From IMG/VR virus record IMGVR_UViG_2563366840_000014, positions 1 through 24,668 of that record: DNA of 24,668 nt. One strand, given 5' to 3'. The notes below the pieces were generated by a model that saw only the letters and a list, made by a program, of their open reading frames with translations, did not search any database and was not told where the DNA came from. This document shows positions 10,087 through 11,017 of this stretch, piece after piece. Positions within the stretch are counted from its first letter, which is position 1. Every line of letters starts with the position of its first letter. This DNA is from a virus (Duplodnaviria > Heunggongvirae > Uroviricota > Caudoviricetes). Made by a program: the position numbers and the translations under genes.

Positions 10087-11017
10087 ATTAACCGGCTATG
10101 TATGGGATGGTTGCGCAGCGTCAGGCATGAAATTATCCAGCGTGGCAATTATGGCCCGCCTGGCTGATTTCAGTAATGACGAAGGTGTGTGCTGGCCATC
10201 AATTGAAACCATTGCCCGCCAGATTGGCGCGGGGATGAGTACCGTCAGAACGGCTATCGCACGGCTGGAAGCAGAAGGCTGGTTAACGCGTAAGGCGCGT
10301 CGCCAGGGTAACCGCAATGCGTCGAATGTTTATCAGCTTAACGTTGCGAAGCTTCAGGCAGCGGCATTTTCTCAACTGTCAGATTCTGACCCGTCAAAAT
10401 CTGACGCATCAAAATCTGACCCGTCAAAATTTGATGCGTCGAAATCTGGCAAAAAAGCGGGTTTTCACCCGTCAGAATCTGGCGGGGATCCGTCAGTAAA
10501 ATCAAAACATGATCCGTCAGATAAAAAACCTTCTCGTCCGGACGCTTCGCAACCGGACACGCAGACGGCTGAACAGGATTTTTTAACTCGCCATCCTGAT
10601 GCGGTTGTATTCAGCCCTAAAAAACGCCAGTGGGGGACGCAGGATGATTTGACCTGCGCACAGTGGCTCTGGAAAAAAATCATCGCCCTGTACGAGCAGG
10701 CTGCCGAATGTGACGGCGAGGTGGTTCGTCCCAAAGAACCGAACTGGACAGCCTGGGCAAACGAAATTCGCCTGATGTGTGTGCAGGATGGTCGTACTCA
10801 CAAACAAATCTGCGAGATGTACAGCCGCGTCAGCCGCGATCCGTTCTGGTGCCGTAACGTGCTCAGCCCGTCGAAGCTGCGGGAAAAATGGGATGAGCTT
10901 TCCCTGCGCTTATCGCCGTCCGTCAGCACATACACAGAAAAACGTGAAGATCCGTACTTCAAATCCAGTTACGACAACGTGGACTACAGCCAGATCCCGG
11001 CAGGATTCAGGGGGTGA
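10076..11017 (+). CDS. Phage replication initiation protein (N-terminal winged-helix, O-like) with internal iterons
   Basis: N-terminal DNA-binding region; central repeat-encoded low-complexity segment; gene order after cro/cII. Confidence 0.65.
   Translation: MSTKLTGYVWDGCAASGMKLSSVAIMARLADFSNDEGVCWPSIETIARQIGAGMSTVRTAIARLEAEGWLTRKARRQGNRNASNVYQLNVAKLQAAAFSQLSDSDPSKSDASKSDPSKFDASKSGKKAGFHPSESGGDPSVKSKHDPSDKKPSRPDASQPDTQTAEQDFLTRHPDAVVFSPKKRQWGTQDDLTCAQWLWKKIIALYEQAAECDGEVVRPKEPNWTAWANEIRLMCVQDGRTHKQICEMYSRVSRDPFWCRNVLSPSKLREKWDELSLRLSPSVSTYTEKREDPYFKSSYDNVDYSQIPAGFRG
10385..10444 (+). repeat. Four tandem 15-bp direct repeats (iteron-like, putative ori) inside the replication gene; related CCGTCAG motifs continue to about 10520
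   Basis: TCTGACCCGTCAAAA / TCTGACGCATCAAAA / TCTGACCCGTCAAAA / TTTGATGCGTCGAAA read directly from the sequence; encodes SDPSKSDASKSDPSKFDASKS. Confidence 0.6.

Follow-up and report, generated by a model that had tools for sequence, protein, structure and literature searches.

A proposed replication origin inside the initiator gene of SfII/SfIV-type lambdoid prophages

Where does replication start in lambdoid prophages of the SfII/SfIV/CPS-53 type, and how does the helicase of the host reach that place? The question is raised by a 24,668-nucleotide (nt) stretch of Caudoviricetes DNA (IMG/VR record IMGVR_UViG_2563366840_000014, positions 1 to 24,668), referred to here as the window, which covers the early-right and the late genes of a lambdoid phage of the SfII/SfIV type. 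Its replication initiator gene contains a short array of repeats, which an earlier note on this DNA had taken for the iterons of an origin. On the basis of sequence comparison, positions 10378-10529 are likely to be the replication origin of this prophage type, lying within the linker-coding part of its own initiator gene. In the mechanism proposed here, the winged-helix N-terminal domain (N-domain) of the initiator would recognize 13-base-pair (bp) dyads, five packed together and one standing alone, and a nucleoprotein complex would form. The complex would destabilize the adjoining A-rich block with its GATC sites (10486-10529). The lambda-O-like C-terminal domain (C-domain) and a DnaT-like tail would then bring in the host helicase (DnaB-DnaC), a role assigned to them in view of the lack of any loader gene of the P or DnaC type in the phage. 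We infer all of these steps, i.e., the binding of the initiator, the start of replication at this place, the unwinding in the A-rich block and the route of helicase recruitment.

The repeats and the initiator gene that carries them

Tandem Repeats Finder reported a period-15 array at 10385-10448 (4.3 copies, 81% matches, consensus TCTGACCCGTCAAAA) and also gave a period-30 reading. The four tandem 15-bp repeats described before at 10385-10444 were thus confirmed in coordinates and unit. According to a reading of the sequence and to repeat and palindrome scans, the natural unit is nonetheless a 13-bp dyad, offset by 7 bp from the unit first described. Consecutive tandem dyads are separated by 2 bp, and a sixth dyad stands apart from them (Table 1). 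Their consensus is GTCA[A/G]A-N-TCTGAC. At two mismatches or fewer, the 13-mer was found six times on the plus strand of the window, always within 10378-10483. The chance expectation is 0.58 per whole window on both strands, as estimated from base-composition shuffles of the window (mononucleotide, not dinucleotide-preserving), and the six observed dyads span 106 bp. Since the dyad symmetry has no coding explanation, it was counted in favor of a DNA function of the repeats. Repeat and motif scans found no second iteron-like cluster elsewhere in the window.

Nearly all related loci have the sixth dyad, even those variants whose tandem array is lost. Indeed, the number of tandem dyads varies from about 0 to 11 among natural variants, and the sixth site and the A-rich block are kept; the arrays of the class-A set of loci have 3-11 tandem units. 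The information content of the dyad positions was calculated from 413 units of 75 class-A loci. It peaks at positions 2-4, 6, 8, and 11 and is lowest at positions 1 and 14, with positions 15 and 13 also low; as the units were chosen by their likeness to the consensus, the absolute values are inflated, and the contrast between positions is unaffected. The positions of low information fall at or beside the 2-bp spacer. Array length is strongly polymorphic, as seen in the proteins P0015, P0018, P0029, P0034, and P0063 and in locus L098 (340-600). At one extreme, few or no tandem dyads are left in the natural variant; at the other, there are 8-11 units. For instance, E. coli ESY003 has 8 units, with three extra TCTGACGCATCAAAA units, and a Klebsiella variant has 9.

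Table 1 Positions of the proposed origin, the initiator gene and neighboring features in the window
Feature	Position	Strand	Sequence or description
pR-like promoter before cro	8861-8890	+	TTGACA, 18 nt, TACATT; 10/12 consensus matches
DUF4222 gene	9865-10086	+	Small; end overlaps the initiator start
Replication initiator gene	10076-11017	+	313 amino acids; winged helix-turn-helix N-domain, predicted disordered linker with the proposed origin, lambda-O-like C-domain, DnaT-like tail
N-terminal DNA-binding domain	10076-10369	+	Codons 1-98; predicted recognition helix 54-66, wing 70-88
Five tandem dyad iterons	10378-10450	No strand	13 bp each, 15-bp period; proposed initiator-binding sites
Dyad 1	10378-10390		GTCAGAtTCTGAC; perfect 13-bp palindrome
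Dyad 2	10393-10405		GTCAAAATCTGAC
Dyad 3	10408-10420		ATCAAAATCTGAC
Dyad 4	10423-10435		GTCAAAATTTGAT
Dyad 5	10438-10450		GTCGAAATCTGGC
Spacer between array and sixth site	10451-10470	No strand	AAAAAAGCGGGTTTTCACCC; A6 tract, then T4 tract
Sixth dyad, isolated	10471-10483		GTCAGAATCTGGC; 33 bp on from the fifth dyad
A-rich block with two GATC sites	10486-10529	No strand	Proposed unwinding and helicase-entry region
Junction segment	10536-10558	No strand	GTCCGGACGCTTCGCAACCGGAC; palindromic ends; N-/C-module exchange boundary between phages
C-terminal domain	10559-10924	+	Residues 162-283; homologous to the C-domains of lambda O and phi80 gp15
C-terminal tail SQIPAGFRG	10988-11014	+	8/9 residues identical to the E. 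coli DnaT C-terminus SQIPPGFRG
YfdN-like gene	11014-11508	+	Winged helix-turn-helix and PerC domain; Pfam PerC E 7e-9; PHROG 1324 "transcriptional activator"
Dam-type N6-adenine methyltransferase	11475-12161	+	Pfam Dam E 1e-45

Beyond the array, the further CCGTCAG motifs that had been noted are present (10468, 10489, and 10513), and the A-rich stretch proved real. The 40-mer of lowest GC content in the gene starts at 10493, 10 bp past the sixth dyad, with a GC of 0.30 compared to a gene mean of 0.525, and the top strand of 10492-10529 has 19 A and 7 T. Two copies of GATCCGTCAG(t/a)(a/t)AAA are located in the block, at 10487 and 10511 and thus 24 bp apart. At least two GAYCCNNNA motifs were found in 86 of 89 related loci, and in 57 loci the last two are spaced by the same 24 bp. 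The codons of the block are near-invariant (GAT 1.00, CCG 0.91, TCA 1.00, GTA 1.00), and the block with its GATC sites is conserved over all iteron subtypes and species. This is what would be expected of a part contacting the common host machinery and not the variable DNA-binding domain. As for the two GATC sites of the origin core (10487-10490 and 10511-10514), they are notable solely through their conservation: the window holds 97 GATC sites against 95.5 expected, i.e., no enrichment.

The spacer between the array and the sixth dyad follows a pattern of an A-tract and then TTTT(C/G)ACCC, which is kept in phiNP, Klebsiella phage 1 LV-2017 (Kp1LV), Flotzy, YeP2, and phiP27. It could be an intrinsic bend or a site for a host factor. 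A terminator-like hairpin on the minus strand (10471-10458) is not conserved in relatives and was treated as chance.

The open reading frame around the repeats had been described as O-like, and the repeats do lie inside such a gene. The initiator matches PHROG 391 ("replication initiation O-like") over its full length (E 8e-136), and a match to the O-like PHROG 277 was also obtained. In Escherichia phage vB_EcoM-720R4, a gene named "DNA replication protein O" has the same sequence (100% identity), and the counterparts in SfIV and SfII are 98.9% identical. In BLASTP comparisons, the C-domain showed 31% identity to lambda O over 216 residues (E 7e-26) and 36% identity to phi80 gp15 (E 4e-25). 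The label O-like holds for the C-domain and the PHROG assignment. It does not extend to the N-domain, which is an HTH_36 (helix-turn-helix, HTH) domain and is not of the lambda O family. Pfam HTH_36 (PF13730) is matched by residues 23-70 (E 4e-11, 42.9 bits vs. a cutoff of 25), and generic winged-helix families of Pfam match the N-domain as well. Phage_rep_O (PF04492) does not match the N-domain in Pfam; lambda O (E 6e-36) and phi80 gp15 (E 6e-25) do match this family. The protein gp15 was considered as a characterized homolog of the N-domain and rejected, as it is lambda-type and has the C-domain alone in common with the window protein. No specific NCBIfam model matches the initiator. Databases already label the gene "O-like" or "primosomal protein", and one RefSeq annotation terms a fragment of it "pentapeptide repeat-containing protein".

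An AlphaFold model was built on 25 homologs. Its confidence (predicted local distance difference test, pLDDT), given per 10-residue block, is 64-87 for residues 1-98 of the N-domain and mostly 86-97, with one block at 70, for the helical C-domain (162-283). Residues 102-160 have a pLDDT below 50 and are predicted to be disordered. The repeats and the A-rich block correspond to codons 101-152 and would thus encode the predicted disordered linker. A disordered product implies weak protein constraint on the segment, and this was counted in support of the proposed origin. In a Foldseek search of the PDB, the nearest structures to the N-domain were dimeric MarR/ArsR winged-helix regulators, with a weak match (E ~2e-3). 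A sequence search of solved structures gave weak MarR-type matches to the N-domain and none to the C-domain. The structure matches weakly suggest a dimeric winged HTH-like fold for the modelled domain and nothing beyond.

Constraint on the DNA and pairing of the repeats with the N-domain

The array encodes SDPSK/SDASK/SDPSK/FDASK within the open reading frame, and the constraints on DNA and protein had been said to coincide in this linker. The linker is encoded as described. However, the DNA constraint dominates, and the peptide changes freely between subtypes. Compared to phiNP, Kp1LV, Flotzy, and YeP2, 81-88% of the amino acids of the N-domain are kept, but the codons of conserved residues are kept at just 34-49%, which implies that synonymous sites are largely randomized there. 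In the repeat region, the same comparison gives the opposite picture, with 64-82% of the amino acids and 82-96% of the codons kept. This was extended to 87 loci of different species, taken from a scan of one genome per species and from phage records. At conserved residues, the top codon had a share of 0.91 in codons 99-152 of the linker, compared to 0.52 in the N-domain (p = 5.5e-14, Mann-Whitney test). Serine, with its six-fold degeneracy, is fixed in the linker as TCA or TCT depending on the position in the dyad. Moreover, in phiP27 and in Citrobacter sp. NCU1 (L087), the reading frame across the last, isolated dyad is shifted (LQNL or RQNL, not SDS or SES), and the DNA motif is retained. 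The encoded linker peptide varies freely by subtype, e.g., SDPSK, VDPSN, RPETE, and SEPSK. Judged from these comparisons, selection on the repeat region clearly acts on the DNA and not on the peptide.

The type of repeat follows the type of N-domain. Recognition helices of the form ST[VI]RTxx pair with the half-site GTCAGA, those of the form STVI[TG]xx with T[TC]CAGA, and those of the form [ST]TV[KS][SA]AI with GTCAA[CT]. In all of these classes (89 loci), the repeats stay dyad-symmetric, recur every 15 bp and occupy the same position. At a greater distance, Min27 and ST64B, with N-domains 39-43% identical over the matched part (residues 25-94), have distinct dyad repeats in the same location (GGGCAGgagCTGCCC and GTGCA..TTCAC).

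Module swaps between phages lead to the same assignment. Citrobacter phage phiNP has the N-domain and the repeat region (window positions 10077-10554) in common with the window and an unrelated C-domain (Phg_2220_C). Conversely, mEp460_4F5 has the C-domain in common from ~10518 on, with an unrelated N-domain and four repeats of its own (TCCATCGGGTCAAAATG type) in the same place. Taken at the level of sequence, the repeats appear to belong to the N-domain, as they co-vary with the recognition helix and move with the N-domain in module swaps. The similarity to mEp460_4F5 starts at ~10518 and that to phiNP stops at ~10554, and the segment 10518-10558 (AAAAAACCTTCTCGTCCGGACGCTTCGCAACCGGAC) is common to phages differing on one side, i.e., phiNP with another C-domain and mEp460_4F5 with another N-domain. 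This segment looks like a recombination joint for swapping initiator modules. The palindrome GTTGCnnnGCAAC occurs at the junction position in many related loci.

Comparison with known origins and other possible roles

In lambda, four annotated iterons lie at 39-48% of the length of gene O, and the four annotated gp15 sites of phi80 occupy 40-48% of the length of gene 15. With the window dyads at 32-43% of the initiator gene, the repeats were rightly placed as the lambda iterons are: in both, sites with dyad symmetry are found midway along the initiator gene, between the parts for the N-terminal DNA-binding domain and the C-terminal domain. The lowest-GC 40-mer of the lambda gene begins 3 bp past iteron 4. 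To the right of this iteron, lambda has 26 A and 8 T, and the window stretch is likewise A-rich on the top strand. The lambda gene order (cI, cro, cII-like, initiator) with an upstream pR-type promoter is found in the window phage as well. phi80 is also lambdoid and has its own iteron sequence at the same place, with a C-domain homologous to that of the window.

Lambda and the window differ in several respects. The N-domain is HTH_36 in the window and Phage_rep_O in lambda O. The window has five sites plus one and its relatives 3-11 tandem units, compared to four in lambda, and the two conserved GATC repeats of the A-rich block are a further difference. Lambda has a P gene and no DnaT-like tail on its O protein; the window phage has the tail and no P gene. 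phi80 departs from the window with its lambda-type N-domain (PF04492), with sites every 20-21 bp from start to start, and with a P-like loader gene after gene 15 (gene 14, the P analog), which the window does not have.

Lambdoid origins consist of iterons and an AT-rich tract in the middle of gene O, and each lambda-type iteron is an inverted repeat (PMC7466680). The number of iterons varies, with four in lambda and six in Stx phages of the 933W type, and the extra iterons in Stx phages add residues to the O linker (PMC7466680). This variation parallels the 0-11 tandem units described here, although the Stx iterons and O proteins are lambda-type and those of the window are both different. All computational tests that could have contradicted the reading of the repeats as origin iterons agreed with it, at the level of sequence: the O-like nature of the gene, position, selection on the DNA, co-variation, module swaps and the A+T stretch.

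Iteron plasmids (pPS10 RepA, R6K pi, RK2 TrfA, and F RepE) also combine a winged-helix initiator with repeated sites beside an A+T-rich unwinding element. The plasmid origin is intergenic and usually has DnaA boxes, and its iterons are 17-22 bp long and directly repeated. Unlike them, the window sites are dyads within the initiator gene, and no DnaA box is nearby. The same principle of design is found in the Bacillus phage SPP1, of an unrelated group, in which the origin-binding protein G38P binds repeats inside its own gene (oriL). The SPP1 protein, its repeats and its helicase-loading partners (G39P/G40P) differ from those of the window. For lambda, it is textbook knowledge that the origin lies where the initiator gene codes for the linker, and it is no surprise that this locus should be an origin. 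What is new here is a widespread second version, with another family of DNA-binding domain, tighter sites and no loader gene.

Several observations weigh against the proposed origin. No P, DnaC, helicase or primase gene is present in the window, and the helicase step is thus unexplained. The A+T-rich block is weaker than that of lambda, as its lowest 40-mer has a GC of 0.30 and that of lambda 0.20. The sites are 13 bp long at a 15-bp period, compared to 18-bp lambda iterons with starts 20-24 bp apart. Half-site centers are 7 bp apart, and sites recur every 15 bp, i.e., ~1.4 helical turns. A 7-bp spacing of half-sites is tight for a MarR-like dimer, leaving the binding stoichiometry ambiguous. 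The minor helix classes represent few independent lineages (1-4 loci per helix type, 5 per minor class). Two natural variants, P0015 and P0018, have zero tandem units, which means that the array can be dispensed with unless the prophages in question are defective. Lastly, a literature search found no description of this iteron class or its origin; an earlier description is possible, as one relevant review was not covered.

Among the alternatives, the one that survives best is a mainly regulatory role, in which repeats bound by the initiator would serve the autorepression of the operon, titration or a handcuffing-type copy control, and replication would start elsewhere. It would suit the range of 0 to 11 tandem units, as for a dosage-tuning element, and the variants which lack the array and keep the sixth site and the A-rich block. 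We regard it as unlikely nonetheless, since the region corresponds in position, adjoining A-rich block and architecture to the proven origins of lambda and phi80, the window has no other cluster of this kind, and the sites are located 300 bp into the gene, far from the pR-like promoter. A regulatory role of the array may coexist with origin function.

The fold energy of the top strand from 10370 to 10535 (-28.4 kcal/mol, z = -5.6 vs. shuffles) bears on a second possibility, namely that the element acts as a structure in single-stranded DNA (ssDNA) or RNA. Hairpins or cruciforms would then be a signal for primosome assembly or priming, or an mRNA element, in place of duplex sites. The DnaT-like tail hints at a PriA-type pathway, and such a pathway uses structured ssDNA. 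However, strong self-pairing is expected of any dyad array and is by itself no argument that the element works as RNA or ssDNA. With a center of 1 nt, a single 13-bp dyad cannot form a hairpin, the Rfam scan of the window returned nothing in the repeat region, and the co-variation with the protein helix would stay unexplained. Lambda iterons give such fold energies too (PMC7466680). We hold this explanation to be very unlikely as a replacement for duplex binding sites; it might also hold alongside the origin model, as an addition to it.

A third possibility is that the dyads are bound by another protein than the initiator, such as the YfdN-like winged-HTH/PerC protein, the phage repressor, Cro or a host factor. 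The neighboring gene does encode a winged HTH, and the A-/T-tract spacer and the GATC sites could attract IHF, Fis or SeqA. The half-site tracks the recognition helix of the initiator itself, however, and arrays move with the N-domain and not with the downstream gene. A PerC-type neighbor accompanies just 15 of 50 loci with the DnaT-like tail and 2 of 32 loci without it, so that it is no obligatory partner, and phiNP has the same array with no PerC-type gene. As for DnaA, no box was found in the origin (the closest, an 8-of-9 match, is at 9711), and matches with at most one mismatch are not enriched in the window (9 vs. 5.5 expected). A role of DnaA was rejected for want of evidence, with no boxes within the origin and none enriched window-wide. 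Binding by another protein is accordingly given little credence. Least credible of all is a mere low-complexity SDPSK peptide repeat, produced by replication slippage and with no DNA function: the period of exactly five codons, the expansion and contraction by whole units and the "pentapeptide repeat" label of RefSeq would fit it, but codons, reading frames and symmetry contradict it: synonymous sites are frozen in a segment predicted to be disordered while amino acids vary, the motif is used in two frames, and the units are dyad-symmetric, with period and symmetry persisting as the peptide changes from SDPSK to VDPSN or RPETE.

Helicase recruitment, neighboring genes and distribution

If the origin is placed correctly, the recruitment of the helicase becomes the main question. 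The initiator ends in a tail resembling the C-terminus of DnaT (Table 1), and in the variant P0112, 14 of the last 20 residues are shared with DnaT. A GFR[G/S/T] tail was found on 50 of 82 related loci, and a DnaT-like tail also on L001, L004, L005, L009, and L012. DnaT-like tails also occur on relatives with unrelated C-domains, i.e., phiNP, Flotzy, Kp1LV, and ST64B. A neighboring gene of the lambda P or DnaC/IstB type was found in none of the 50 tail-bearing loci and in 10 of the 32 tail-less loci (Fisher p = 3e-5); six of these ten encode P and four are IstB/DnaC-like. This anti-correlation in the sequences suggests that the tail stands in for a phage-encoded loader and makes use of a DnaT partner.

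The window protein was also considered as a DnaT homolog. This was rejected, because it shows no similarity to DnaT beyond the terminal 9 residues. The DNA-binding domain of DnaT (PF17948) has no match in the window protein, while DnaT itself matches with E 4e-21, and Pfam returned nothing for the C-terminal half. The tail probably accounts for the name "primosomal protein" in some records. In the preprimosome paper and the DnaT84-153 paper, residues 154-179 are given no partner, just a contribution to cooperative ssDNA binding. A prophage family that replicates without a phage loader, with a copy of the DnaT tail plugging the origin complex into the host restart primosome or into DnaB-DnaC, is a tentative proposal and on balance a doubtful one. 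If true, the tail would be a transferable "helicase-recruitment tag" and would offer a handle on the function of the DnaT C-terminus.

In the window, the order of genes is cI (8173-8826, minus strand), cro, cII-like, DUF4222, initiator, PerC/YfdN-like, Dam, and a protein with a LexA DNA-binding domain, followed by RusA, KilA-N, DUF968, Q, lysis genes, terminase, and portal. Rightward transcription from the pR-like promoter would, by analogy with lambda, cross cro, the cII-like gene, DUF4222 and the initiator gene, and so the proposed origin too. In many related loci, whether on phages, plasmids or chromosomes, a DUF4222 gene is found together with the initiator. Downstream, the YfdN-like gene occupies the position of lambda P but is no homolog of P or DnaC, and yfdN of K-12 stands in the same place. 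The stop codon of the initiator overlaps the start of the YfdN-like gene (11011-11022, GGGGTGATCATGAG), which suggests translational coupling, as for lambda O and P.

The gene adjoining the initiator encodes a DNA methyltransferase, mostly of the Dam type, in 24 of the 50 loci with the tail and in 11 of the 32 without it. The two conserved GATC sites in the origin core may be a target of the phage Dam, which would place origin firing under methylation control. On the early-left side, homologs of K-12 YfdR (98% identical) and YfdQ are encoded at 5147-5710 and 5811-6635, both on the minus strand. YfdR is reported to bind DnaA and to weaken the binding of DnaB and of DiaA to DnaA (PMC4776307). 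The phage may therefore interfere with host initiation at oriC via YfdR while its own loader-less origin fires. A match to the small RNA STnc100 at 7199-7421 (minus strand, 49.1 bits vs. a gathering score of 47) lies between the early-left genes and cI and is the sole Rfam hit of the window.

Of 5426 complete E. coli genomes, 2914 carry the sequence, K-12 with its cryptic prophage CPS-53 among them. Serotype-converting phages of Shigella have it as well, and it extends to at least 80 Enterobacterales species. In CPS-53 of K-12 (L097, 2502-3209), a truncated yfdO pseudogene keeps the iterons, the A-rich block and the C-domain and has lost the entire DNA-binding domain at the N-terminus; next to it come yfdN (PerC family) and a Dam fragment (yfdM). 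Two circular E. coli records named as plasmids carry the module (L099, NZ_CP081716.1, 37.7 kb; L100, CP085522.1, 41.5 kb), and PLSDB gives neither of them a replicon or relaxase type. These are probably episomal phage genomes, which fits the proposed origin yet is no evidence of origin function.

The proposed origin could serve as a practical marker for origin annotation in thousands of prophages in which this gene is now labelled "helix-turn-helix domain-containing protein" only. Furthermore, the matched specificities of initiators and iterons (GTCAGA, TTCAGA, TCCAGA, and GTCAAC) form a natural series for studying the evolution of winged-helix initiators. The loader-less, DnaT-tail aspect is judged the most deserving of experiment; it provides a testable lead on the recruitment of DnaB by loader-less lambdoid phages and on the role of the DnaT tail.

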